Shown here: in pieces, positions 16,279 through 64,000 of the stretch | How positions within the stretch are numbered: position 1 is the stretch's first letter | Layout: each line of letters opens with the position of its first letter | Assembly (NCBI GenBank): GCA_049903315.1 | Contig: JBNGBT010000005.1 | Span: 96,001-160,000, forward strand | Source of the DNA: Candidatus Cloacimonadota bacterium | GTDB taxonomy: Bacteria; Cloacimonadota; Cloacimonadia; JGIOTU-2 | Length of the DNA: 64,000 nt | Reading direction: 5' to 3' | Position numbers and translations under genes: made by a program | Notes under the pieces: generated by a model | What the model was told of the DNA's origin: nothing | The model's database searches: none | What the model saw: only the letters and a program-made list of their open reading frames with translations

Positions 16279-16662
16279 ATGAGCTTACGAGAAGATGTTT
16301 TTGCCTGGTTCAAAGCACATCCAGAAGAATTAAAGAAAGAAGGATATGGCTCAAATGCCGCATTAAGGAATGCCTTTCCTAATGAAGACAGAAAAACTCT
16401 TTCAAAGTATAAGATCCAATATTCAAAAGATATGAAAGAAGAAAATCTGTCTGAAAAACCTGTGGAAAAAGTGAAAAAAGAGATCAAAGAGGAAATATCT
16501 CAGGAAGATCTTAAAATTGGTGATCGAGAATTTGATGAGATAATCAATAAAATGAAAGAATGCCCCGCAGCTGGTTTCATAAAAAAGAATCATTTCTTCA
16601 TTTTAGCAGGTCTTGTTTTTATTATTATCTTTTTCATTTTCAATCCATTTAAAAAGGATTAG
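16279..16662 (+). CDS. Hypothetical protein with C-terminal membrane anchor
   Basis: ggagg SD, charged body, hydrophobic C-terminal helix. Confidence 0.7.
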   Translation: MSLREDVFAWFKAHPEELKKEGYGSNAALRNAFPNEDRKTLSKYKIQYSKDMKEENLSEKPVEKVKKEIKEEISQEDLKIGDREFDEIINKMKECPAAGFIKKNHFFILAGLVFIIIFFIFNPFKKD

Positions 16663-16687
16663 CAACGATAAGATTTCAGTCTTCTAA

Positions 16688-17614
16688 ATGAAGTTCACTT
16701 TCATTAAACAAAAGATAATGAATCAAGTGCTTTATGCACTTATTCCCATTTTATTATACGCCATTTATCTCTTTGGATGGCGTGTTTTATTTATAGTGCT
16801 TATTACCAATCTATTTGCTTTTCTTACTGAATACATTTTTATCAAAAACAAACCTAAGGGCAAAGTATCGACCGCCGTTTTTGTGACAGGAAGTCTTCTT
16901 GCACTCACTCTCCCACCAACGATCCCATTGTGGATGGCAGCAGTCGGCGCAGTCGTAGCAGTAAGTTTTGGAAAAATGGTCTTTGGCGGTTTTGGAATGA
17001 ATATGTTCAATCCTGCAATTGTAGGTAGGACTTTTTTATACATCGCTTTTCCCAATGCAATGACAGTACAATGGATGAAACCTTTCACTTCTTTACCTGG
17101 GGGATTTTCACATTTTTCTCAAGCACAGTATGTGACAGCTGCCACACCGATGATACAATTTAAACAAGCAGGTGTGATCACAGAAATGCCTAAACTCTTT
17201 TTTGGAATGATACCCGGTAGTATTGGAGAGACATCTGCTTTATTAATAATAATTGCAGCACTCTATTTGCTTTTTACAAAAACTGCAAAATGGCAGCCAA
17301 TGGTTACAACTCTTTTCAGCTTTATAATTTTCACACTGATCTTTTACGGGAAGAATCCATTATTTTTTCTCTTAAGCGGGGGTATCATGTTTGGTTCTGT
17401 TTTTATGGTTACAGATCCGGTCTCGATGCCTAAAGAGAAATATTCAATCTGGATATATGGTATTTTAATAGGTTTTCTCACTGTTTTCATCAGGAAGTTT
17501 TCTCTCTTTGCAGAAGGATTTATGTTTGCTTTGCTCATCGCAAATACATTTATGCCAATTATTGAATATGCGATGAAGAAACTTACTTCAAAAAATATAA
17601 AGCCAGTGGTATAA
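16688..17614 (+). CDS. RnfD/NqrB family membrane subunit
   Basis: VTG.LLAL.LPP, K.VFGGFG.N.FNPA..GR, FMN-attachment-like TAATP, GSIGETS, FM.TDPVS. Confidence 0.92.
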   Translation: MKFTFIKQKIMNQVLYALIPILLYAIYLFGWRVLFIVLITNLFAFLTEYIFIKNKPKGKVSTAVFVTGSLLALTLPPTIPLWMAAVGAVVAVSFGKMVFGGFGMNMFNPAIVGRTFLYIAFPNAMTVQWMKPFTSLPGGFSHFSQAQYVTAATPMIQFKQAGVITEMPKLFFGMIPGSIGETSALLIIIAALYLLFTKTAKWQPMVTTLFSFIIFTLIFYGKNPLFFLLSGGIMFGSVFMVTDPVSMPKEKYSIWIYGILIGFLTVFIRKFSLFAEGFMFALLIANTFMPIIEYAMKKLTSKNIKPVV

Positions 17615-18234
17615 TGCAAGCACAGAAGAAGCTTTTTTCTGAGACGAAATTCTATCCCATTTTTTTTATGATCATGATAACGATAATTTGTGTGGGTATT
17701 CTGACCACCTTCTATCATATGACCAACAAGCGCGTTGAAGATTATCAAGCGTTACAAATTCAGAAACAGGTTTTGGAAACTTTCGAGCTTTCCACTGAAG
17801 CTGTTTCAGAAGATTATCACAAATATATAACAATGCATACAAGAGACACCCTCACATTCTATGAAGCAAAGAGAGATAATAATGTGATCGGTCATTGTTT
17901 TCCTGTTCAGGGAAGCGGCTTATGGGGAACGATTCGGGCACTTGTTGCACTTGATAAAGATATGTCGAAGATAATTGGTTTCACAATTGTTGAACAGAAT
18001 GAAACTCCAGGACTCGGAGCAAGGATAACAGAAAAGTGGTTTTTGGATCAGTTTAAGAATAAACCAATAGGTAGCAATAATAAAGTTATCAAATTCACTC
18101 TCATTCCCGAGGATGAAAAAGCGAACAAAACAGAGATACAACAAATAACCGGTGCAACTGCGTCAAGCAGAGCTGTCGTGAATATCTTATATAATAACCT
18201 TGTCGAGATCATACAAAAAATCAAAAATTCATGA
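17614..18234 (+). CDS. RnfG/NqrC family FMN-binding subunit
   Basis: N-terminal TM, GLWG, ETPGLG, ITGAT FMN-attachment motif. Confidence 0.92.
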   Translation: MQAQKKLFSETKFYPIFFMIMITIICVGILTTFYHMTNKRVEDYQALQIQKQVLETFELSTEAVSEDYHKYITMHTRDTLTFYEAKRDNNVIGHCFPVQGSGLWGTIRALVALDKDMSKIIGFTIVEQNETPGLGARITEKWFLDQFKNKPIGSNNKVIKFTLIPEDEKANKTEIQQITGATASSRAVVNILYNNLVEIIQKIKNS

Positions 18235-18830
18235 CCAAAAAACAGATACTACTCAATAGTCTTTTTACGGAAAATGCTGTCTGGAGGCAGATCCTCGGTA
18301 TTTGCTCTGCACTGGCTGTGACAAATCTCATTATGAATAGTCTTGTCATGGGCTTGGGGGTGATCTTTACTCTCGCGTGCTCAAGCTTCACTATCTCACT
18401 TCTGCGCAATTATATTCCTAATAGAATTCGTATGATGGTCCAGGTGCTCATTATTGCCTTCTTTGTGATCATTGTGGATTTATTTCTTAAGGCATTTCTC
18501 CCGAATATAAGTCATGCTCTGGGACCGTATGTAGGACTTATAATTACGAACTGCATAATAATGGGAAGAGCGGAAGCATTTGCATCTAAAAACACACCTG
18601 TTAATTCAGCAATAGATGGGATTGGAGCAGGTGCCGGTTATGCGCTTGTGCTGTTGATCATTGCTTTTTTCCGCGAATTATTAGGATTCGGAACAATTTT
18701 CGGTGTGCAGGTTTTAGGAACTTGGTGGACGAAATGGTCGATCATGATTATGGCGCCAAGCGCATTCTTTATGCTCGCACTGCTCATGTGGTTTGTCTAT
18801 ACTATGAAAACAAAAACAGGGAAAAATTAA
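18231..18830 (+). CDS. RnfE/NqrD family subunit
   Basis: LGICSALAVT, GLIITNCIIMGRAEAFA, RELLG. Confidence 0.92.
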   Translation: MTKKQILLNSLFTENAVWRQILGICSALAVTNLIMNSLVMGLGVIFTLACSSFTISLLRNYIPNRIRMMVQVLIIAFFVIIVDLFLKAFLPNISHALGPYVGLIITNCIIMGRAEAFASKNTPVNSAIDGIGAGAGYALVLLIIAFFRELLGFGTIFGVQVLGTWWTKWSIMIMAPSAFFMLALLMWFVYTMKTKTGKN

Positions 18831-18831
18831 T

Positions 18832-19419
18832 ATGGGAATCAGTGCATTCATCATCTTTATGGCAGCAATCTTCACGAGTAATATTTTACTCACGAATTTT
18901 TTGGGAATGTGCTCTTACCTCTCAGTATCAAAACAAGTCGAATCTTCAATAGGATTGGGGCTTGCAGTGTTTTTTGTGATGACATGTACAACTGCTCTGA
19001 ATTACGCAGTATATTATTTTATACTTGTGCCTTTCGATCTTATATATCTTCAATATATCATTTTTATTATTATAATTGCTGCATTTGTACAGCTCATAGA
19101 GATGGTGATCGAACGGTTCTCTCCCGTGCTTTATTACTCGTTGGGAATTTTTCTGCCGCTCATTACTGTCAATTGCGCGATACTCGGAGTATCACTTTTT
19201 ATGATCATCAGGCACTATACTTTTATACAATCTGTTGCGTTTGGTGCGGGAAGCGGAATCGGGTGGATGCTTGCAATTCTTGCTCTTGCGGGTATCCGCG
19301 AAAGAGTCAATGAAAAATTTGTTCCAGTTGGTTTGCGTGGTGCAGCTCTCAGTCTGATAATCACGGGCATTATGGCACTTGGTTTTATCGGTTTTTCCGG
19401 TATTGCAGTTATTCAATAA
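18832..19419 (+). CDS. RnfA/NqrE family subunit
   Basis: N..L..FLGMC, LGIFLPLITVNCAILG, GIRER. Confidence 0.92.
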   Translation: MGISAFIIFMAAIFTSNILLTNFLGMCSYLSVSKQVESSIGLGLAVFFVMTCTTALNYAVYYFILVPFDLIYLQYIIFIIIIAAFVQLIEMVIERFSPVLYYSLGIFLPLITVNCAILGVSLFMIIRHYTFIQSVAFGAGSGIGWMLAILALAGIRERVNEKFVPVGLRGAALSLIITGIMALGFIGFSGIAVIQ

Positions 19420-19420
19420 A

Positions 19421-20524
19421 ATGATCCTATCTATTCTCATCACTATCGGGATCGTTGCTGGAATTGGTGGTTTCCTTGCGTTTTTGCTCGTCATTGCAGA
19501 ATCGACTTTAACAAATTACGGCGAATGTACGATTACGATAAATGAGAAAAAAGAACTTAAAGTTAAAGGTGGAAGCTCATTACTTAATATTTTAAATAAT
19601 AATAAAATTTTTCTTTCATCAGCATGTGGCGGACGCGGAAGCTGTGGATTCTGCAAATGCAAAGTAACTGAAGGTGGTGGTCCGCTTCTCCCAACAGAAA
19701 CCCCGTTTCTCGATGAAGATGAGAAAAAAAATAATATTCGACTTGCCTGCCAGGTGAAGGTTAAACAAGACATCAAAATTGAAATTCCAGAAGATATTTT
19801 TGCAATACAGGCATTCACAGGAAAAGTTACAAAAATCATCGATCTTACCTATGATATCACAGAGTTGATCATACAGCTCACAAAGCCGGAAAGCATCAAT
19901 TTCAAAGCCGGTCAGTATGTTCAATTCGTTGCTCCAAGATATGAAAAAAGCAAACAGTCTGTTACTCGGGCATATTCAATTGCAAGTAGCCCGTACCAAA
20001 AAGATACAATCCAGCTCATCATAAAAAAAGTGCCGGAAGGATTGTGCACAACCTATATTCATGAGTATCTCAAAGAAGGAGATAGTGTGTCCTTTACCGG
20101 ACCTTTTGGTGATTTTATTATCAAGGAAACTCAAAATGATATGCTCTTTGTTGCAGGAGGTTCTGGCAAAGCTCCGATAAAATCTATGCTGGAATTTCTC
20201 AGTGCACAAGGTTCAAAACGAAGAATGGTATATCTTTTCGGAGCACGCACGGAAAAAGATCTTTATCTGACCGATTTATTTGAAAAATTGGAAAAGGAAC
20301 TGAAAAATTTTATATATGTGCCCATTCTCTCACAACCGGAAGAAAATTCGGGATGGAAAGGAAAAACCGGCTATATCATGCCATATTTGAAAGAGTATAT
20401 TAAAGACGCTGCACAGATGGAAGCATATCTCTGCGGAAGCCCTGGCATGATAGATGCAGTAAAAAAAGAACTACATCATCTTAAAATTCCGGCTGATAAT
20501 ATCTTTTATGATTCTTTCAATTAA
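19421..20524 (+). CDS. NqrF-like membrane-anchored 2Fe-2S/FAD/NAD(P)H oxidoreductase
   Basis: N-terminal TM, SACGGRGSCGFC..RLACQ, RAYSIAS, GPFG, AGGSG.AP, YLCG.P, C-terminal YDSF. Confidence 0.9.
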   Translation: MILSILITIGIVAGIGGFLAFLLVIAESTLTNYGECTITINEKKELKVKGGSSLLNILNNNKIFLSSACGGRGSCGFCKCKVTEGGGPLLPTETPFLDEDEKKNNIRLACQVKVKQDIKIEIPEDIFAIQAFTGKVTKIIDLTYDITELIIQLTKPESINFKAGQYVQFVAPRYEKSKQSVTRAYSIASSPYQKDTIQLIIKKVPEGLCTTYIHEYLKEGDSVSFTGPFGDFIIKETQNDMLFVAGGSGKAPIKSMLEFLSAQGSKRRMVYLFGARTEKDLYLTDLFEKLEKELKNFIYVPILSQPEENSGWKGKTGYIMPYLKEYIKDAAQMEAYLCGSPGMIDAVKKELHHLKIPADNIFYDSFN

Positions 20525-48967: not shown

Positions 48968-50578
48968 ATGAAGAGATTGCCATATATACTTATTATATTT
49001 GCTTTATTTGTAGCAATTAATGCCTGTTCGATCTTACAGCCCTATTCAATAAAAAAGATCACTCCTTCGATCCCGGAAGAATACCGGGAAAAAGTTATTG
49101 AAAGTCTCGAAGAAGCCGGGAGTAATAAAAGAGAACTCCTTAAAGTTCTTTATCACTACAAAGATGACCCGCAGAAGCTGGAAGCTGCATCCTTTTTGAT
49201 CGCATATATGCCTGACCACTGTTTTGCAGATGTTGCACTTGTGGATTCGCTGGGCAATCCAGTCCCGTTGAATGTTATGGATTTCAATACTGCATTAGAA
49301 GTACAAACACATATCGATTCACTTGAAAAAGAACTGGGAAAGCTGCATTACAAGCTGATCGAGAAGAGAGAAGATGTAAAAATCATGACAGCTCAGCTTC
49401 TTATGACACATATTGATATGGCATTTCTTGCGTATGGAACTTTACCATGGACAAACAAATATAGCTGGGATGACTTCAGAGAGTACATACTTCCCTACAG
49501 GGGATCGTCCGAGCCTTTATCTAATTGGAGATTGTATTTTTGGTATCTTTTTCCTACAGATAGAGATTCCGCTACAGATCCTCTTCAACTTGCCTATGCC
49601 ATCAATGACTCGGTAAAGAAAATTTTCACTTTTAAAGAGGTATTCTATTATCATCCTGCTGATCAGGGATTGGACGAAATGCTTAAGAACGGATACGGTC
49701 GATGTGAAGATATGACGAATTTCACCATTTATGCAATGCGAGCAAACGGGCTTGCAGTTACGAGCGATTTTACTCCATACTGGCCCGACCGTTCGAATAA
49801 CCATGCATGGAACTCTATCATATTACCAGATGGAAAGGTGATTCCTTTTATGGGTGCAGAAGCGAATCCTGGACAATACAATCTGCAGGAGAAGATAGCA
49901 AAAGTTTATCGTAAGCTGTTTTCTCAGGAGAAGAATACCCTCGCAGATGTACTTCCTGATTCGATGAAAGCACCGCCCTGGCTTGGTTATAAAAATTTCA
50001 AAGATGTGACGGATAAATATGTACCTGTTTCGGATGTAACGGTCCAGATCGATGACGATATCCCTTTTGCTTATATATCTGTTTTCAATGATAATGATTG
50101 GCAACCCATTCACTGGGGAAGTGTTGACAGCTTAAGAAATGTAACTTTCTCTGACATGGGGAGACGCATAGCATACCTTCCTGTTTTTTATGAAATTGTA
50201 GATTCGGTAATAGTGGAAAATGAAATGAAGCCTGATTATGAACCTGTACCCGCAGGTGCACCTTTTATAATGCATGAAAATGGTGAAATAATTTCATTCG
50301 ATAATAAGGGAATTGATCTGCGAGAAAAGGCAGAGATAGCATTTATCATGAAGCAGACCGGGCACGGGGGAATCAATAAGGTGAAAATTGACAGCACCTA
50401 TACCTGGTTCGTCTGGGCTGAAGATGACTGGCAGGAGATCATTGACACCACTGCAACTGCAGATTCTCTTGTTTTTGATTATTATTATCCGGAATCATTA
50501 TTTAAAATTGAAGAGGATTGCCTGCATCCCGATCCGAGGATTTTTACTGTTGAGAATGGGGAAGTATTTTTTTGGTAA
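48968..50578 (+). CDS. Transglutaminase-like domain lipoprotein
   Basis: Lipobox INAC; AG.N..EL, FREYILPYR, G.CED......MRA.G, HAWN, KVYR. Confidence 0.85.
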   Translation: MKRLPYILIIFALFVAINACSILQPYSIKKITPSIPEEYREKVIESLEEAGSNKRELLKVLYHYKDDPQKLEAASFLIAYMPDHCFADVALVDSLGNPVPLNVMDFNTALEVQTHIDSLEKELGKLHYKLIEKREDVKIMTAQLLMTHIDMAFLAYGTLPWTNKYSWDDFREYILPYRGSSEPLSNWRLYFWYLFPTDRDSATDPLQLAYAINDSVKKIFTFKEVFYYHPADQGLDEMLKNGYGRCEDMTNFTIYAMRANGLAVTSDFTPYWPDRSNNHAWNSIILPDGKVIPFMGAEANPGQYNLQEKIAKVYRKLFSQEKNTLADVLPDSMKAPPWLGYKNFKDVTDKYVPVSDVTVQIDDDIPFAYISVFNDNDWQPIHWGSVDSLRNVTFSDMGRRIAYLPVFYEIVDSVIVENEMKPDYEPVPAGAPFIMHENGEIISFDNKGIDLREKAEIAFIMKQTGHGGINKVKIDSTYTWFVWAEDDWQEIIDTTATADSLVFDYYYPESLFKIEEDCLHPDPRIFTVENGEVFFW

Positions 50579-55304: not shown

Positions 55305-55736
55305 ATGAAAACGACATTGCCAAAAGTCGATGCAATTGAGCATCATTGGTATGTGATCAACGCAGAAGATGCTGTACTTGGCAGATTATCTACCAAAGTC
55401 GCAGAACTTCTTAGAGGAAAGCATAAACCGACTTTCACTCCATTCTTTGATATGGGTGATTTTGTTATAATATTGAACGCTGGAAAAGTAAAAGTTACAG
55501 GCCAAAAAGAATTTGCAAAAGAATACAAGCGATATTCCGGTTATTCAAGCGGACAGAGAGTGACTTCCTTCCAGCAAATGCGAGAAAACAATCCGGAACA
55601 GATCATATATCATTCTGTAAAAGGCATGCTTCCGAAGAACAAACTTCGTGACAGGATGCTCAAGAGACTCAAAATTTATACCGGCAATACTCACAATCAT
55701 CAGGCACAACTGCCTAAAGAAATTAAAATTTCTTAA
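55305..55736 (+). CDS. rplM: 50S ribosomal protein L13
   Basis: WYVI.A...LGRL, GKHKP.FTP..D.GD, KGMLPKN. Confidence 0.98.
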
Positions 55737-55753: not shown

Positions 55754-56140
55754 ATGCAATATTTTGATGCAATTGGCAGGCGTAAAAACGCCGTTGCACG
55801 TGTTCGTTTATCCAAAGGAACCGGAAAAAGAATCATTAATAAAAAACTTATGAAAGATTATCTCAGTAGAGAAACTCTTGAAATGATCGTCGAAGAACCT
55901 TTCAAGCTTATTGACCAGTCTGAACGATTTGACATGAAGGTCAATGTTCGTGGCGGGGGACTTTCCGGACAAGCCGGCGCAATCCGTCTTGGCATCAGCA
56001 GAGCTCTTTTGGAGTATGATCCTGAACTACGAGGGATCCTGAAAAAAGAAGGACTTCTTACACGTGATGCTCGCGAGAAAGAACGCAGGAAATACGGACT
56101 TGCAAAAGCACGAAAAGCATATCAGTATTCAAAGAGATAA
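55754..56140 (+). CDS. rpsI: 30S ribosomal protein S9
   Basis: GRRK.AVARV, GGG.SGQAGA, ERRKYGL.KARK..Q.SKR. Confidence 0.98.
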
Positions 56141-56243: not shown

Positions 56244-57263
56244 ATGAGTGTCGTTGAAATGAAAAGTCTTCTCGAGGCTGGTGTTCATTTTGGTCATCAA
56301 ACTCGACGCTGGAATCCTAAGATGAAACGATATATCTTCATCAAAAGAAATGGGATTCACATCATTGATCTGAAACAAACCCTCGAAGCCATCAACCAGG
56401 CATATTATTTTATCAGAGAACTTGCAGCAAAAGGTCAAAGAATCCTTTTTGTTGGAACAAAAAAACAGGTGTCTGAAGGCATACAGAATGCAGCAGAAAA
56501 ATGCGATGAGTTCTTTATCAGCAACAGATGGTATGGTGGTACGTTAACAAACCTGAAAACGATCCGACAGAGCATATCAAAGCTGGATGAATTTGAAAAA
56601 TTGCAGGAAACAGGTGAAATCAATAAGTTCACCAAACTCGAAGTGCTCAAAATGCAGAGGAAGTATGATAAGATACTCAGCGCACTTGGTGGAATTCGTG
56701 ATATGGATGAAACACCAGCAGCATTGTTTATTGCAGATATTGTCTATGAAAGAAATGCAGTGAGTGAAGCCAAAAATCTCGAGATTCCTATTGTGGCTAT
56801 TGTGGATACTAATGGTGATCCTGATGGCGTTGATTATGTAATACCCGGTAATGATGATGCAATGAAATCCGTAAATCTCATTTGTGATATAATGGCAAAT
56901 GCTGTTATAGAAGGAAAGAAGATCGCTGCTGAAGGTGGAGATATTTCCGAATTTGAAGTAGCAAAAAAGGATGAAGAAGAAGTCGTTGAAGTTGAAAAAG
57001 AAGAAATCACAGAAAATGATGAGAAAGTGGTTGAAGAAGTCGTTGAAGAAGATGTAGAAGAAGAGCCGGTAGAAAAAGAAACGAAAAAAACAAAAGAAGA
57101 GAAACCGAAAAAAGAAGAGAAAAAGACCAAAAAGATAAAAAAAGAACCAGAAGAAATTATTGAAGAAAAGAAAGAAATCCGTTTTGAATGCCCCGACTGC
57201 GGTAAAACATTCTCGTCAAAACGTGGCTTAAAGATCCACCTCGGATTGGTTCATCAAAAATAA
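56244..57263 (+). CDS. rpsB: 30S ribosomal protein S2 with acidic/basic extension and C-terminal C2H2 zinc finger
   Basis: LLEAGVHFGH, WNPKM, FVGTKKQ, DTN.DP, PGNDDA; tail FECPDCGKTFSSKRGLKIHLGLVH. Confidence 0.97.
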   Translation: MSVVEMKSLLEAGVHFGHQTRRWNPKMKRYIFIKRNGIHIIDLKQTLEAINQAYYFIRELAAKGQRILFVGTKKQVSEGIQNAAEKCDEFFISNRWYGGTLTNLKTIRQSISKLDEFEKLQETGEINKFTKLEVLKMQRKYDKILSALGGIRDMDETPAALFIADIVYERNAVSEAKNLEIPIVAIVDTNGDPDGVDYVIPGNDDAMKSVNLICDIMANAVIEGKKIAAEGGDISEFEVAKKDEEEVVEVEKEEITENDEKVVEEVVEEDVEEEPVEKETKKTKEEKPKKEEKKTKKIKKEPEEIIEEKKEIRFECPDCGKTFSSKRGLKIHLGLVHQK

Positions 57264-57277
57264 TATACGGAGCTATT

Positions 57278-57871
57278 ATGGAAATTACAGCAAAACAAGT
57301 AAAAGAGTTAAGAGATAAAACAAATGTTGGTTTGATGGAATGCAAAAAAGCATTAGCAGAAGCAAATGGAAATGTTGATGAAGCAGTGAAGATCCTGCGC
57401 AAAAAGGGAATTGCAAAAGCCGAAAAGAAAGCCAGCAGAGATTCCAGCGAAGGCATTATTCATGCATATATACATCCGGGTGCAAAACTTGGTGTACTGC
57501 TTGAACTGAGCTGTGAGACAGATTTTGTTGCACGCACTGATGATTTTCAGGAAATGGCAAACCAGATCGCAATGCATATTGCTGCGACTAATCCAATGGC
57601 TATTTCTGAAGAAAATATTGATCCAAAAATTATTGCAGAAGAAAAAGAAATTTATAAAGCTCAAGCGCTCGCTGCCGGCAAACCCGAAAATATCGTTGAC
57701 AAGATCATTGAAGGTCGCCTTAAAAAATATTATACTGAGAATTGTCTACTCGACCAACCCCTTGTCATGGATGAAGACATCACTATTAAAGAGCTCATAT
57801 CTAATGCAGTATTGAAGCTTGGTGAAAACATCAGCATAAAAAGATTTGCACGATTTCAAATAGGAATGTAG
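57278..57871 (+). CDS. tsf: Elongation factor Ts (short form)
   Basis: VKELR..T..G.MECKKAL, E..CETDFVA, GENI...RF.R. Confidence 0.97.
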   Translation: MEITAKQVKELRDKTNVGLMECKKALAEANGNVDEAVKILRKKGIAKAEKKASRDSSEGIIHAYIHPGAKLGVLLELSCETDFVARTDDFQEMANQIAMHIAATNPMAISEENIDPKIIAEEKEIYKAQALAAGKPENIVDKIIEGRLKKYYTENCLLDQPLVMDEDITIKELISNAVLKLGENISIKRFARFQIGM

Positions 57872-57872
57872 C

Positions 57873-58577
57873 GTGAAATACAAGAGAATCCTGTTAAAAA
57901 TCAGTGGAGAAATACTACAGGGAAAGAATTCCTTTGGTATTGAAAATGATGCTGTTACACGGATTGTCAAAGAACTTGTTGATCTTCACACAAAGGGATT
58001 GGAACTCGGCATTGTCATAGGCGGCGGTAACTTTTTCCGTGGAGCTACTTCTGCGATCGAAGGTATGAGACGTCCTGAAGCTGATGCGATCGGCATGCTC
58101 GCAACTGTACAAAATGCAATTGTCCTTCATGAAAAATTGCGGGAATACCACGTGCTTTCGGAAATCTTTACTGCAGAACCCATTGCATCGATAGGCACAT
58201 GCTTTTCATCTGAAAGTGCGCAGGCAGCTCTTCGAGCCGGCAAAGTCGGTCTTTATTCGGGGGGAACCGGGAATCCGTATTTTACTACTGATACCGCAGC
58301 AGTTCTACGTGCACTTGAGATTGAAGCAGATATTCTTTTCAAAGGAACAAAAGTTGATGGTGTGTATGATAGAGATCCTGTAAAATTTCCTGATGCTACG
58401 CTCTTCAATAATATTTCTTACGCTGATTATATTGAATTAAATCTCAAAGTAATGGACCTCACTGCTATTTCACTGGCAAAAAATAATCACTTAAAAATAA
58501 AAGTATTCAATATCAAAGAACTTGGAAATATTTCCAAAGCTGTTTTTGAAGATAATTTCGGAAGTATCATAGAGTAA
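57873..58577 (+). CDS. pyrH: Uridylate kinase
   Basis: RILLKISGE, GGGNFFRG, GTGNPYFTTD, KVDGVYD.DP. Confidence 0.97.
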   Translation: MKYKRILLKISGEILQGKNSFGIENDAVTRIVKELVDLHTKGLELGIVIGGGNFFRGATSAIEGMRRPEADAIGMLATVQNAIVLHEKLREYHVLSEIFTAEPIASIGTCFSSESAQAALRAGKVGLYSGGTGNPYFTTDTAAVLRALEIEADILFKGTKVDGVYDRDPVKFPDATLFNNISYADYIELNLKVMDLTAISLAKNNHLKIKVFNIKELGNISKAVFEDNFGSIIE

Positions 58578-58654: not shown

Positions 58655-59218
58655 ATGCAAGAATTAGAGTCGATTTACAATGACACTCGCGACAAGATGG
58701 ATAAGGCCATTGAAGCTCTTCACAAAGAGCTCATGAAGATTCGAACAGGTAAAGCTAATATCTCCCTTCTTGATGATATAACTGTTGATTACTATGGACA
58801 GCCTTCCCCCCTCAATCATATTGGAACGATCTCTGTACCCGAAGCACGGCTTATTCTCATTAATCCATGGGAAAAGAAAATGCTGCAAAACATTGAAAAA
58901 GCGATCCTTGCATCTGATCTCGGCATCACACCTCAGAATGATGGAAATGTGATCAGACTTGCTTTTCCGCCACTTACTGAAGATAGAAGAAAGGATCTCG
59001 GTAAGTTAGTAAAAAAGCATGGAGAAGAGGCAAAGATTTCGGTCAGAAATATTCGCAGAACTGCTAATGATGATATCAAAAAATTAGAAAAGGATAGTGT
59101 TATTTCTGAAGATAATTCCAAAGATGGGTTGGATGAAATTCAGGAAATCACTGATGAATTTACAAAAAAAATCGACGAAACTGTCGAACATAAAGAAAAA
59201 GAAATCATGGAGATTTAA
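58655..59218 (+). CDS. frr: Ribosome recycling factor
   Basis: IRTGKA, VDYYG, IEKAI..SDLG, PPLTE.RR, RNIRR. Confidence 0.97.
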
Positions 59219-59411: not shown

Positions 59412-62033
59412 ATGAATTTTGAAAATAAGTGCACGATCGACAGAAGAACCAATGCTATAATCGGACTTGTCGTTTTTCTGTCTGTTTTTATTATCTATTA
59501 TATCACAAAACCAGTGTCACTTTCGTTTTGGGATTGCGGTGAGTATATTTCCTGCAGTTCAATTCTTGGAGTGCCACATCCTCCCGGAAATCCTTTTTAT
59601 ATCTTACTTGGGAAATTTTTTACTCTTCTCCCGATAGGACTTTCACATGCTCAGGCAGTAAGTCTACTTTCAATATTTTTTAGTTGTTTTGCGGTTCTCT
59701 TTGTCTATCTTTCCATTGTAAAGCTTGTTGCGATCTGGGAAACAAAGCAGATCTATGCATATATTGCAGGAGTTATTGGCGCGCTCTTCATTGCATTTTC
59801 CCAGGAATTTTGGATCAATGCGATAGAGGCGGAAGTATATGGGGGATTATCATTTTTCATTGCACTTATCATCTGGCTGACACTTATCTGGACAGAAAAG
59901 CAAAAGAACTTCGATCATCAGAATATTTTACTCCTTATTGTATATCTTTTCTTTCTCGGCTTCGGTGTACATCAAACAACATTACAGATCGCTCCGGCGG
60001 TGTTAATCATTGTAGTTCTCCCATTCCTCAAATTTGATAAACAATTCTATAAGAAACTTGCGATCTTCGTGGTGATAGGACTTGCTCTTTATTATATTTT
60101 CTATCTTATAGGAACGGGCTTCGGACATGGAAGTCTTGGCAAATATATCTTTGCACTTTTGGTTATTGGTGTAATGATATATTACCTGAAGGATTTTGTC
60201 CAGCCGCAAGTATGGTTTTTTGCACTCTTAATGGTCATCCTTGGATTGAGCACACACCTTATTCTCCCGATCCGTGCGGCAGCAAATCCCTTTATTAATG
60301 AGGGAGACCCATCTACTTTGCCGAGATTCATGGATTATGTGTTCAGAAAACAATATGGTCCAACCAGTTTCTTTGTCCGCCGAGCTCCCATCTTTATGCA
60401 GCTTGATTTCCATTTCCTCAGATATTTCAGCTGGCAGTTTTTCGATGCCGGTGTCATAAGCAATTTCTTGCATGTCTCCAAACAATTCATTCATACGATT
60501 TTCCAATTTATTGTTGTTGCACTCGGACTGACCGGCTTGTACTATCAGTTTAAAAAAAGTAACCGCTCATTCATTTATCTCGCATCATTCTTTTTCATGG
60601 CAAGTATCGCAATGATACTTGTAATGAATCTCTCATCTGCGGAAGTGCGTGACAGACCATACTTTTTCATCACTGCGTACATACTGTGGGCTTTCTGGAT
60701 GGGCATCGGGGCAATGGGAATAGTCCGATTCTTAAGAAAAAAATCGAAGCTACTTGCGATTATTGTTTTGTGCCTTATCGCAACACTTCCAATTATAAAT
60801 ATGGCTTCTCATTATCATAAAACTGATAGAAGTCAGGAGCTTCTTTCGCTCGAGTACGGAACCAATTTCTTAAATGGTCTTGATAAGAATGCCATTATTT
60901 TCACGAATGGTGATAATGATACTTTCCCGCTCTGGTATTCCCAGGCAGTGTATGATCCTAATGCACAAGAGTATTATCTCGAAGATGATACACTTCTTTT
61001 TGCAGAGATAAAAGGATTTTCAATCTCAAAAAAGGGAGAAATGCCGAAAAGAACTCAGATAAAACTGAATGAAGCGTATTTGGCTAAAAAGGATCTTGGT
61101 GGGATTCGCAAAGATGTTTCTGTCGCGAATTTGAGTCTTCTCAACACTCCGTGGTATATAAAACAACTCCGTGATTTTGAAGGCATAGAAATAAATCTCT
61201 CGGATAAACAAATAGATGCACTTCATCCAATCCAGCTTGCGAACGAAGCAAATTTCAAGGTCGGCGATCTCAAGATCACTTTCCCAAAGGATAAACAGCT
61301 TTACGTCAAAGATCAGATGGTTCTCCAGATCATAAAAGATAACTATGGCAAACGCCCGATTTACTTCGCAGTTACAGTTGCAGACCGTGTTGATTTTGAT
61401 GAATACCTTCAAAGCGAAGGCATGGCGGACAGAATAATCTCAACAAAAGCAAAATATCAGATAAATGCTCCACGACTCAATCATAATATCGAAAATGTAT
61501 TTGATTACAAGTCCATCTATAATGATAATCTCTACAAGGATGAGAACATGAAGCGCCTTATCAATAATTACGGTGCGGATTTCATGCGCATGTCCACAAC
61601 GTTCTATCAGAATGAAGATTATGATAATGCAGTAAAATATCTCAAAAAAGCAATGAATTTCATAAAAGAGAAAGATAGATATCTACCGAGTCTTGCGAAT
61701 TTGTATTATGAGATGGGCTTATACGATAGTGCTCTCATTGTGCTTGAACCGTTAGTAGAAAAGAGTCCCGAAGACCCTCAGCTTGTTTATCTGCAAATTG
61801 AATTCTTAGTGAAGAATGAAGATATCCCTGGTGCTCTCAGTGCTCTTGAGAACTTCATTATGAAAAATACAGATCAGCACTATTTCCTCAACCGTTATGT
61901 TAATATTATAAGAGGTAATCCTCAATATATTGAAAGAGCCCTCTCGTACATGGATGAATTGGTGAAGCAGTTTCCTGATAATAAATCATTCCAGCAATTT
62001 AAAGAACAGATTGAAGATATTAACCAAAAGTAA
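59412..62033 (+). CDS. DUF2723/TMEM260-like multi-TM glycosyltransferase with C-terminal TPRs
   Basis: SFWDCGEYI....LGVPHPPG.P.Y, FW.NA.EAEVY, RDR.YFF, FTNGDNDTFPLWY, NLSLLNT.WY. Confidence 0.9.
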   Translation: MNFENKCTIDRRTNAIIGLVVFLSVFIIYYITKPVSLSFWDCGEYISCSSILGVPHPPGNPFYILLGKFFTLLPIGLSHAQAVSLLSIFFSCFAVLFVYLSIVKLVAIWETKQIYAYIAGVIGALFIAFSQEFWINAIEAEVYGGLSFFIALIIWLTLIWTEKQKNFDHQNILLLIVYLFFLGFGVHQTTLQIAPAVLIIVVLPFLKFDKQFYKKLAIFVVIGLALYYIFYLIGTGFGHGSLGKYIFALLVIGVMIYYLKDFVQPQVWFFALLMVILGLSTHLILPIRAAANPFINEGDPSTLPRFMDYVFRKQYGPTSFFVRRAPIFMQLDFHFLRYFSWQFFDAGVISNFLHVSKQFIHTIFQFIVVALGLTGLYYQFKKSNRSFIYLASFFFMASIAMILVMNLSSAEVRDRPYFFITAYILWAFWMGIGAMGIVRFLRKKSKLLAIIVLCLIATLPIINMASHYHKTDRSQELLSLEYGTNFLNGLDKNAIIFTNGDNDTFPLWYSQAVYDPNAQEYYLEDDTLLFAEIKGFSISKKGEMPKRTQIKLNEAYLAKKDLGGIRKDVSVANLSLLNTPWYIKQLRDFEGIEINLSDKQIDALHPIQLANEANFKVGDLKITFPKDKQLYVKDQMVLQIIKDNYGKRPIYFAVTVADRVDFDEYLQSEGMADRIISTKAKYQINAPRLNHNIENVFDYKSIYNDNLYKDENMKRLINNYGADFMRMSTTFYQNEDYDNAVKYLKKAMNFIKEKDRYLPSLANLYYEMGLYDSALIVLEPLVEKSPEDPQLVYLQIEFLVKNEDIPGALSALENFIMKNTDQHYFLNRYVNIIRGNPQYIERALSYMDELVKQFPDNKSFQQFKEQIEDINQK

Positions 62034-62076
62034 TAAGGATTATATAAATATAATTAATTGCTATAAATATTGACGT

Positions 62077-62104
62077 AAAACCCAGTTGAAAATTACTGGG
62101 TTTT
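62077..62104 (+). terminator. Probable intrinsic terminator between DUF2723 gene and secA
   Basis: aaaacccagt-tgaaaatt-actgggtttt. Confidence 0.65.
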
Positions 62105-62139
62105 CAATTATTAGCAAATATTAGCAAAATAAAGAGATT

Positions 62140-64000
62140 ATGATAAAAAAAGTTTTAACAAAGATTTTCGGTACTCAGTTCGAACGGGAAGTGAAAAAAA
62201 TCCAGCCCGTTGTTGATGAGATCAATCGCATTTATGCAGAGCTGTCATCTCTTTCTGAGGAGGAGCTTAAGCACAAAACTGTCGAGTTTAAAGAGAGAAT
62301 TCAACAGCGGATTGATGCCAAGCAAAAGCTTCTTGATGAGCTTGAATTAAAGTATGACGAAACCTCTGATGATAATGAGAAAGACCGCATCGGCTTCCAG
62401 ATAGATGATGCGAAGAAGGATCTCGATGAGGAAACTGCAAAAGTACTTGAAGATATTCTCCCCGAAGCATATGCAGTGATAAAGGAAACCTGTCGGCGTT
62501 TTGTCGGAACATCATGGTCTGTTCGCGGACGTGAAACGCAATGGAATATGATACCATACGATGTCCAACTAATCGGTGCGATCGCCCTGCATAAAGGGAT
62601 GGTCACAGAGATGAAAACCGGTGAAGGAAAAACCCTAGTCGCAACCATGCCTTTGTATTTGAACGCTCTTGTAGGCAAGGGTTCTCATCTTATTACGGTG
62701 AATGATTATCTTGCGCAACGTGATGCTGAATGGATGGGACAGATATACAAATATCACGGATTGACCGTAGGTTGTATATTTGGCGAACAAGAACCACCTG
62801 TACGAAGAGAGCAATACGTTGCGGATATCACCTATGGCACAAATAACGAATTTGGTTTTGATTATCTAAGAGATAATATGGCTGTTAGTCCAGACAGACT
62901 TGTACAGCGTGAGCATCATTATTGCATCGTTGACGAGGCAGACAGTGTGCTTATAGATGAGGCGCGAACACCGCTTATTATTTCGGGAACGGTTGAACAT
63001 TCGAAAAATTATTACAGAGAACTCAACCCACAGATACGTAAATTAGTGACCAAGCAGCAGCGATTGGTGAATGAGCTTTTATCTGAGATCAATACTATGA
63101 TAGAGAAGGGCACTGCTCAGGAAAATGAATTTGAATTCGGGAAGAAAATGCTTACTGTAAAGCGCGCTGCACCGAAATCAAAACGTTTCATGAAATTGCT
63201 GAAAGACGGCACGTATCAAAAGATCATGAATGATGTCGAGGGGCAGTATCTGCGAGAGAAGCAGCTTCATAAGATCGATGAACAGCTTTATTATGCGATC
63301 GACGAAGGACAGCGAAGTGCAGATCTCAATGAGATGGGGCAGGATGAACTCTCTAAATTTGACAGTTCACTGTTTGTCATGCCTGACCTTGATGAAGAGA
63401 TCGAAAAAATTAATAATGATGAATCGCTAGATAAAGCTGCAAAGCAGGTAAAAAAACAGAAATTACAGGAAGATTTCCTTGAAAAAAATGAGAAACTTCA
63501 TAACATTAAACAAATGCTTCTCGCATTTTCAATATTTGAAAAAGATGTAGAATATATTGTTTCTGATAATCGGGTAATAATCGTCGATCAGTTCACAGGA
63601 CGTATCATGCCCGGAAGGCGCTTTAGCGAAGGGCTTCATCAGGCCTTGGAAGCAAAGGAAAATGTTCAGATACAGGAAGCCACGCAAACACTTGCTACCA
63701 TTACACTTCAGAACTATTTCCGAATGTATACGAAACTCGCAGGTATGACAGGTACTGCCATTACGGAGCAGGTTGAATTTGAAGAAATTTACAAACTACC
63801 CGTTATCGAGATACCAACAAACGAACCGATACGCCGGATTGATTATGACGATCTTATCTATAGAACGAAAAAAGAAAAATATGAAGCACTCACTGATGAA
63901 ATTGAAGATATGTATAAGCAGCGCAGACCGGTACTTGTAGGTACGATATCTGTTGAAGTATCAGAGATAATCAGCAGGTTGCTGAAAAGGAAAAATGTCC
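62140..64000 (+). CDS. secA: Preprotein translocase subunit SecA (3'-truncated by window; absent from the ORF track)
   Basis: Translation from ATG 62140: YDVQLIG, EMKTGEGKT, TVNDYLA.RD, DEADSVLIDEARTPLIISG, GLHQALEAKE, AGMTGTA. Confidence 0.98.
   Translation, partial: MIKKVLTKIFGTQFEREVKKIQPVVDEINRIYAELSSLSEEELKHKTVEFKERIQQRIDAKQKLLDELELKYDETSDDNEKDRIGFQIDDAKKDLDEETAKVLEDILPEAYAVIKETCRRFVGTSWSVRGRETQWNMIPYDVQLIGAIALHKGMVTEMKTGEGKTLVATMPLYLNALVGKGSHLITVNDYLAQRDAEWMGQIYKYHGLTVGCIFGEQEPPVRREQYVADITYGTNNEFGFDYLRDNMAVSPDRLVQREHHYCIVDEADSVLIDEARTPLIISGTVEHSKNYYRELNPQIRKLVTKQQRLVNELLSEINTMIEKGTAQENEFEFGKKMLTVKRAAPKSKRFMKLLKDGTYQKIMNDVEGQYLREKQLHKIDEQLYYAIDEGQRSADLNEMGQDELSKFDSSLFVMPDLDEEIEKINNDESLDKAAKQVKKQKLQEDFLEKNEKLHNIKQMLLAFSIFEKDVEYIVSDNRVIIVDQFTGRIMPGRRFSEGLHQALEAKENVQIQEATQTLATITLQNYFRMYTKLAGMTGTAITEQVEFEEIYKLPVIEIPTNEPIRRIDYDDLIYRTKKEKYEALTDEIEDMYKQRRPVLVGTISVEVSEIISRLLKRKNV

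Follow-up and report, generated by a model that had tools for sequence, protein, structure and literature searches.

Human TMEM260 (CAZy family GT117; PDB 9rql, 9rqm and 9rqn) is a protein O-mannosyltransferase of the endoplasmic reticulum that combines a GT-C core carrying the PF11028 (DUF2723) domain, a Rossmann-like domain and a tail of tetratricopeptide repeats (TPR). Its residues D52, H67, R264, Y267 and R355 contact the donor and D441 is the catalytic base; mutating D52, H67, R264, Y267 or D441 abolishes activity, the TPR part binds the polypeptide acceptor, and the enzyme is proposed to act co-translationally (bioRxiv 2026.03.17.711096; this and all other published work is cited here from the accessible parts of the sources). 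The human enzyme is specific for IPT domains (PMC10214176; bioRxiv 2026.03.17.711096), and its sequon tolerates variation and serine (bioRxiv 2026.09.21.753134). For bacteria, the accessible part of PMC10214176 speaks merely of "distant homologs in bacteria". Here we analyze such a homologue, hereafter the transferase. It is encoded directly upstream of secA in a stretch of 64,000 nucleotides (the window; contig JBNGBT010000005.1 of assembly GCA_049903315.1, positions 96,001 to 160,000 of the forward strand) from a Candidatus Cloacimonadota bacterium.

The second system to be compared is the general O-glycosylation of Bacteroidota at D-S/T-[AILVMT] sequons. Its glycan starts with mannose (Man-Rha core), its oligosaccharyltransferase (OTase) and ligase are described as undiscovered, sequon enrichment has been reported for Bacteroidota and Fibrobacterota, even within Bacteroidota the LFG-like locus does not occur throughout the phylum, and homologues of eukaryotic O-mannosylation enzymes have been suggested as something to look for (all PMC12871550). 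The accessible parts of PMC10897501 and PMC12645811 name no OTase, and the enzyme adding the first sugar counts as unidentified (PMC12871550; bioRxiv 2026.07.27.740950). The present analysis narrows this question to two named families, GT117 and YfhO. We found no literature report of a D-S/T sequon signature, protein glycosylation (judged by the titles and opening abstract lines of the papers listed) or a glycoproteome in Cloacimonadota, and no paper proposing the TMEM260/DUF2723 family as the missing sequon-directed initiating transferase in bacteria. New here are a phylum-wide test in Cloacimonadota, a direct comparison with YfhO and the failure of the argument from the secA neighborhood.

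Judged by its sequence, the transferase (873 amino acids (aa), single copy in the genome) is an intact GT117-family enzyme that shows every family feature for which the sequence gave a clear answer. PF11028 matches its residues 41-202 (E 1.2e-45, 155.9 bits, cut-off 24.2), Pfam TPR matches lie near the C-terminus (residues ~727-814), and a hydropathy scan gives 13 transmembrane (TM) segments. TMEM260 is the sole solved sequence relative of the part preceding the TPR tail; a 65-sequence profile aligns with 9rql over TMEM260 residues 28-486 (E 1.3e-46). In the alignments, TMEM260 residues D52, H67, R264, Y267 and D441 correspond to D41, H56, R312, Y315 and D501 of the transferase, and none of these varies in the homologues compared, 42 of 42 close and 65 of 65 wider ones (subsets picked from the 120 and 150 matches listed). 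R355 of TMEM260 aligns at a two-residue gap, and the adjoining R413 and R415 are both invariant. The preliminary description, made from the letters of the window, had recognized a multi-TM DUF2723 protein with a TPR tail between rpsB-tsf-pyrH-frr-ferredoxin and secA and had assigned it to the TMEM260 family. Both statements are borne out, the first by the open reading frame (ORF), Pfam, hydropathy and the gap of 106 nt to secA, the second by PF11028, the profile match and the intact TMEM260-type active site.

An AlphaFold model of the transferase (pLDDT 83.9) matches the GT-C enzymes STT3, Pmt4/PMT and PglB with Z 21-22 (rmsd 4-5.5 Å, 320-410 residues aligned) and also ArnT, AftB and ALG enzymes with Z 17-21; TMEM260 itself is not among the matches listed in this fold search. 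Compared with TMEM260, the bacterial protein has 13 rather than 11 TM segments and a longer periplasmic region, carries the motif GDNDTFP where the human enzyme has RGDLPG, and possesses additional invariant arginines (R288, R413 and R415). From the number of TM segments and by analogy with the topology of TMEM260, its Rossmann-like/TPR part would face the periplasm. The DUF2723 proteins of Bacteroidota (e.g., Porphyromonas gingivalis PGN_0192, Prevotella intermedia BWX39_09045) are 27-32% identical to the transferase and have the same R-x-Q-Y, RERDY and GDNDTFP motifs (three of three proteins checked). They differ in being mostly ~1,090 aa long and, in Bacteroidales, in being followed by a polysaccharide deacetylase gene and queG instead of secA. 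Note that tandem GT117-like genes (910 and 911 aa) are present at one further locus (L205), and that genome G142 has two adjoining PF11028 matches.

Exported proteins of this genome carry D-[ST] sequons beyond chance, as had been supposed from the window. ORFs were called genome-wide and assigned to export classes by a simple, crude heuristic combining signal peptide and hydropathy. In 470 exported proteins, D-S-L was observed 174 times against 67.4 expected (2.58-fold, bootstrap confidence interval (CI) 2.14-3.05), whereas 1,201 cytoplasmic proteins contain it 125 times against 123 expected (1.01-fold, CI 0.86-1.20). When the exported proteins lacking a C-terminal sorting domain are scored for 3,986 tripeptides, D-S-L is the most enriched, followed by D-T-L, and D-S-T comes eighth. 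The signal is spread widely (117 proteins carry D-S-L, 59 expected; still 1.88-fold without the 20 richest), and both E-[ST]-L (0.88-fold) and the reversed L-[ST]-D (1.12-fold) are flat. The Bacteroidota system is similar in that D-S/T-hydrophobic enrichment is confined to exported proteins, Ser exceeds Thr, Leu comes first and Glu is no substitute; it differs in belonging to another phylum, in that the signal here is concentrated on Leu (with weaker Thr, Val and Ile), and in that the system here is a prediction from sequence. Furthermore, D-S-L is in excess in four 200-kb samples of other Cloacimonadota families (42 observed, 16.5 expected), in the exported proteins of 72 distant GT117 loci (38 and 13.4) and in a Prevotella control (23 and 8.0).

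Further observations concern possible carriers of these sequons. Genome-wide, the full sequon stands at 1.03-fold in cargo with C-terminal domains and at 1.81-fold in lipoproteins, echoing a pattern of P. gingivalis (PMC8729774). Six exported proteins with type IX secretion system-type/FlgD C-terminal domains, including a C25 peptidase, are encoded at 21094-47491 of the window. The densest sequons of the genome (25) are those of a predicted 744-aa lipoprotein (G000:C11:358213-360447, minus strand; given as genome, contig and positions, G000 being the genome of the window). The transferase itself has only two sequons (residues 526 and 772).

PF11028 is present in 154 of the 158 genomes of the phylum, nearly always in one copy. 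Three of the four misses (G001, G156, G058) trace to contig ends, and in G117 (90% complete) PF11028 was not found with this query. A Dpm1/Ppm1-like synthase is encoded in 154 of 158 genomes as well (single copy here, G000:C33:231886-232644), and its Atlas neighbors are named polyprenol monophosphomannose synthases. The same number of genomes possess an orthologue of YfhO. Here, this protein (825 aa, G000:C66:103707-106184) has its gene flanked by those for a Wzx flippase and a GT2 and is 26-28% identical, over ~90% of its length, to Bacteroidota proteins designated as "YfhO family". As the transferase is near-universal in the phylum, presence/absence co-occurrence cannot separate it from YfhO. 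At the 72 distant loci, the synthase orthologue lies at most 10 kb from GT117 in six cases (five independent) and YfhO in four (two independent), with 0.14-0.29 expected by chance per single-copy gene; genes for RmlD, GT2, GT4 and methyltransferases accompany them. In two distant lineages (L209/L230 and L237/L238), GT117, YfhO and the synthase are found in one operon. One pathway with two GT-C steps would fit this meeting of the three genes in distant lineages, and it would also fit a published model in which two enzymes are missing.

Genome G058 (99% complete) had been considered as one that lacks transferase and synthase and is nevertheless enriched in D-S-L (19 observed, 7.6 expected). It was not used as evidence: contig C39 ends exactly at the point from which the operon would be expected, by synteny, to go on, and the entire block around the synthase, ruvB among it, is missing too, which indicates an assembly gap. 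As to other possible transferases in the genome of the window, no STT3/PglB was found, two PMT_2 (ArnT-like) genes and four Wzy_C matches are present, and a TMTC search gave no match in this genome nor in the controls and is therefore uninformative. A PglL-like enzyme may be another initiating enzyme.

We propose that the transferase is a core inner-membrane protein O-mannosyltransferase that starts D-S/T glycosylation, YfhO being responsible for a later step, and we see this proposal as having an even chance of being correct. The single-copy synthase would make polyprenyl-phosphate-mannose, the predicted donor, which the transferase would bind through D41, H56, R312 and Y315. The putatively periplasmic Rossmann-like/TPR part would hold the presumed acceptor, an unfolded exported polypeptide, and D501 would act as a base in the transfer of mannose onto Ser or Thr of D-S/T-(L,V,I,T) sequons. 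Action on unfolded chains is suggested here by analogy with TMEM260, not by the position next to secA. A general O-glycosylation of the Bacteroidota type, which Cloacimonadota seem to have as well, would begin with this mannosylation; the two phyla have the two candidate GT-Cs and a Dpm1-like synthase in common. In the division of labor that we envisage, the YfhO orthologue would most likely add the second sugar or ligate the outer glycan. We give the protein-directed step to the TMEM260 orthologue, since it retains three features of an established protein O-mannosyltransferase: the residues that bind mannose, the base and the TPR that binds the acceptor. The TM-Rossmann-TPR architecture is that of TMEM260, and the P. 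gingivalis DUF2723 gene PGN_0192 is in the table of essential genes (PMC3547785). Of the earlier claim that this is the candidate initiating transferase for D-[ST] sequons at the Sec channel, the candidacy stands, with the active site and the D-S/T-L signal of exported proteins in its favor; the link to Sec, drawn from adjacency, does not (see below).

This provides a structural argument in favor of the TMEM260 orthologue rather than YfhO, the family put forward recently. Each of the two families is core in a second phylum (154 of 158 genomes), and they share an operon in two distant lineages. More tentatively, and with a little less confidence than for the role of the transferase, we suggest that motif-directed protein O-glycosylation is ancestral, extends well outside Bacteroidota to Cloacimonadota and further sister lineages and is run by the trio of polyprenol-P-mannose synthase, TMEM260 orthologue (as the initiating enzyme mannosylating D-S/T-L) and YfhO (as the second-step enzyme), human TMEM260 being a specialized descendant or a sister of a bacterial general O-mannosyltransferase.

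A number of observations weigh against the proposed role. The full D-[ST]-[AILVMT] motif has only a small excess in exported proteins (1.38-fold, compared with 1.08-fold in cytoplasmic ones) and stands at 1.04-fold in G026 and 0.81-fold in G058. The preliminary description had asked whether enrichment is equal in genomes without DUF2723. For D-S-L this was not seen in four PF11028-less records (E. coli, Aeromonas, Sinorhizobium and Fusobacterium; 5 observed, 7.2 expected), but this control comprises only 95 exported proteins and is confounded by phylogeny, and D-[ST]-L in E. coli reaches 16 against 6.4 expected (2.5-fold, P about 0.001) despite the absence of PF11028. Three small Bacteroidota DUF2723 loci show no D-S-L enrichment (2 observed, 1.5 expected). 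In humans, the sequon is a long IPT-domain motif that is rich in Pro and Gly and unrelated to D-S/T, and we found no publication reporting GT117 activity of a bacterial protein. In the published model, the core disaccharide is transferred en bloc (PMC12871550), and the glycan of Tannerella forsythia has Gal at its reducing end (PMC8729774). PGN_0192 and the YfhO-like PGN_1968 are both expressed glycoproteins of P. gingivalis (PMC8729774) and both appear in its essential-gene table, and only PGN_1968, not PGN_0192, is in the essential list common to P. gingivalis and Bacteroides thetaiotaomicron (PMC3547785). The remaining points against the proposed role are those that favor YfhO.

Indeed, YfhO is the main rival, and it is with this rival in mind that we consider the identification of the transferase as the missing sequon-directed initiating enzyme to be evenly poised. 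In the alternative, which we regard as doubtful but by no means negligible, YfhO would be the sequon-reading transferase, and the TMEM260-like enzyme would act in the same pathway by adding a sugar, either to the glycan as it grows or to an intermediate linked to lipid. The YfhO orthologue, likewise multi-TM and core in these genomes, is of a family separate from GT117 and could be rival or partner. It is equally core (154 of 158), matches the Bacteroidota "YfhO family", and shares operons with GT117 in L209/L230 and L237/L238. In this genome, its neighbors are a Wzx flippase and glycosyltransferases; this position can be read for this role, and it fits an outer-glycan ligase too. The YfhO family was proposed as the OTase in silico, on the grounds that it is essential, is conserved throughout the phylum and matches yeast Pmt in HHpred (bioRxiv 2026.07.27.740950), and PGN_1968/BT2796 are essential in two species (PMC3547785). 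However, the base and TPR module that act on the polypeptide in the human enzyme are found in the TMEM260-like protein, and YfhO family matches are also found in B. subtilis and L. lactis. The characterized YfhO reportedly acts on lipoteichoic acid, which counts against a role in reading protein sequons. The accessible part of bioRxiv 2026.07.27.740950 states that P. gingivalis glycosylates without YfhO. We rejected this as an argument, since PGN_1968 bears a YfhO/PMT-like annotation and has BT2796 as its counterpart.

The YfhO gene of this genome belongs to a cluster (L060, G000:C66:102679-113980) in which ftsK-lolA is followed by genes for a sugar-phosphate nucleotidyltransferase-like protein, a sulfotransferase, a GT4, a CDP-alcohol phosphatidyltransferase, Wzx, the YfhO orthologue and a GT2. 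We designate it as a candidate outer-glycan locus. Compared with the LFG locus of Bacteroidota (metG, wzx, glycosyltransferases), it has the wzx-YfhO-GT2 cluster together with GT4 and sulfotransferase genes, and no metG among the genes listed. Elsewhere in the genome (L062, G000:C55:67942-72830), genes for a GtrB/ArnC-like GT2 and for sugar modification are followed downstream by one for a DUF6044 multi-TM protein, another possible module for lipid-linked sugar transfer.

It is unlikely that the transferase is a protein O-mannosyltransferase for narrow, fold-defined substrates (Ig/IPT-like) that is independent of the D-S/T system. The IPT specificity of human TMEM260 (PMC10214176; bioRxiv 2026.03.17.711096) and the many Ig-like exported proteins of this genome would suit such a role, but a single-copy core gene that is essential in P. 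gingivalis and clusters with the synthase, RmlD and YfhO suggests a general one, and the Ig-rich C-terminal-domain cargo has the weakest sequon signal (1.03-fold). A non-protein acceptor (lipid A/lipopolysaccharide or another envelope polymer), as for ArnT- or Aft-type GT-Cs, appears quite improbable: outside the TPR part, TMEM260 is the one solved protein related in sequence, the conserved base and the TPR tail argue for a protein acceptor, and the genome already has two separate PMT_2 (ArnT-like) genes, although the fold matches ArnT, AftB and ALG enzymes (Z 17-21) and the transferase gene precedes a glycerophosphotransferase gene and skp-lpxD in family f5.

The neighborhood of secA carries no functional information. 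In family f1, secA begins 21-226 nt downstream of the transferase gene in 12 of the 16 testable genomes (G001, G010, G016, G018 and G020, with the gene partial or without full match, were left out of the count). In the other four, insertions of 1.3, 3.1, 3.3 and 12.9 kb separate the two; the inserted genes, among them a type III restriction-modification pair, are on the opposite strand. Elsewhere in the same order, the transferase gene is adjacent to secA in G021 and not in G022. Outside the order, marker coordinates of Cloacimonadota genomes were compared by hand among the matches listed, genomes with the two genes on different contigs being uninformative, and no co-directional adjacency was seen. 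The genes are convergent and 11-17 kb apart in nine genomes of family f8, divergent and adjacent in G035, divergent and ~13 kb apart in G041, and >200 kb apart in 17 outside-order genomes with both on one large contig. Neither the 72 distant metagenome GT117 loci (45 of them with at least 3 kb downstream) nor the three Bacteroidota DUF2723 loci have secA. The neighbors of the transferase gene vary by family (proS, valS, clpX, uvrA, sugar ABC permeases, skp-lpxD).

The adjacency, which the preliminary description had linked to action on proteins emerging from the Sec channel and whose conservation among related genomes it had proposed as a test, is thus restricted to one lineage and absent elsewhere, and therefore gives no support to coupling with Sec; the position between translation genes and secA is the inherited housekeeping gene order of one taxonomic order. 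Besides, SecA is cytoplasmic, whereas the active site of the transferase is predicted to be periplasmic. That the transferase is kept beside secA through co-expression and physical coupling to the Sec machinery is very unlikely and already largely refuted at the level of synteny: the direct adjacency in family f1 and G021, the loose linkage in f8 (nine genomes and one divergent neighbor) and G041 and the proposed co-translational action of TMEM260 (bioRxiv 2026.03.17.711096) are outweighed by the antisense insertions in f1, the large distances outside the order and the distant and Bacteroidota loci without secA. Note that the gap before secA (62033-62140; L064-L067) is an insertion hotspot: each of four close relatives has its own, different antisense cassette there.

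This gap contains a hairpin; for the 116-nt region, a folding energy of -22.8 kcal/mol was obtained (z = -3.75), and none of 200 shuffles was as stable. In four of four insertion genomes, a 50-nt element with the hairpin is located directly upstream of secA, and secA therefore very probably has its own promoter in this conserved element. Sigma-70-like sites are not commoner than in shuffles, no Rfam family was matched by the hairpin, and none of the RNA contigs listed bridges the gap between the transferase gene and secA (these contigs are from relatives, mostly <95% identical, and contigs can neither show transcript ends nor rank genes). A function of the hairpin as the terminator of the transferase gene was considered and is not shown: it stays with secA, was not called by a simple terminator scan, and has no compensatory change among eight aligned copies, three of which have a mismatch that shortens the T run. 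Hence, of the suggestion that the hairpin at 62077 uncouples transcription from secA, a real hairpin and a transcriptionally separable secA remain; the hairpin belongs to the upstream region of secA and may be a terminator or a 5' leader.

The features of the window are listed in Table 1. The start codon of the transferase gene follows the stop of the ferredoxin gene after 4 nt, and its own stop is followed after 106 nt by the start of secA.

Table 1. Features of the window around the transferase gene and predicted substrates (positions within the 64,000 nucleotides).
Feature	Position	Strand	Remarks
Exported Ig/heparinase-like protein, 1840 aa	31258-36780	+	Predicted substrate; 26 sequons, 10.9 expected
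Exported transglutaminase-like protein	48968-50578	+	Predicted substrate; 10 D-[ST]-[AILVMT] sequons, 1.6 expected
rplM	55305-55736	+	Opens the housekeeping run; Pfam L13
rpsI	55754-56140	+	Pfam S9
rpsB	56244-57263	+	C-terminal C2H2 zinc finger
tsf	57278-57871	+	
pyrH	57873-58577	+	AA_kinase family
frr, ribosome recycling factor	58655-59218	+	PF01765, E 2e-68
2x[4Fe-4S] ferredoxin, 60 aa	59225-59407	+	
TMEM260/GT117-family GT-C glycosyltransferase	59412-62033	+	TM residues ~11-471, Rossmann-like ~472-710, TPR ~711-872
Donor-binding loop codons D41, H56	59532-59579	+	TMEM260 D52, H67; alignment
Donor-loading loop R312-x-x-Y315	60345-60356	+	TMEM260 R264, Y267; profile alignment
FTNGDNDTFP motif	60900-60929	+	D501 codon 60912-60914, TMEM260 catalytic base D441; profile alignment
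secA upstream element	62058-62110	+	Conserved; holds hairpin 62077-62104
secA, 5' part	62140-64000	+	Whole gene 1063 aa, G000:C55:158140-161331

Apart from these features, the window contains an ordinary Nqr/Rnf-type gene run beside UDP-sugar genes and pnp (16279-20524). The rpsB product has its C2H2 zinc finger (residues 314-337, ~57183-57254), an unusual feature for a bacterial S2 protein, above the Pfam cut-off and after an acidic/lysine-rich linker. In eight of nine related rpsB-bearing loci, this finger is 81-100% conserved, with a variable linker.

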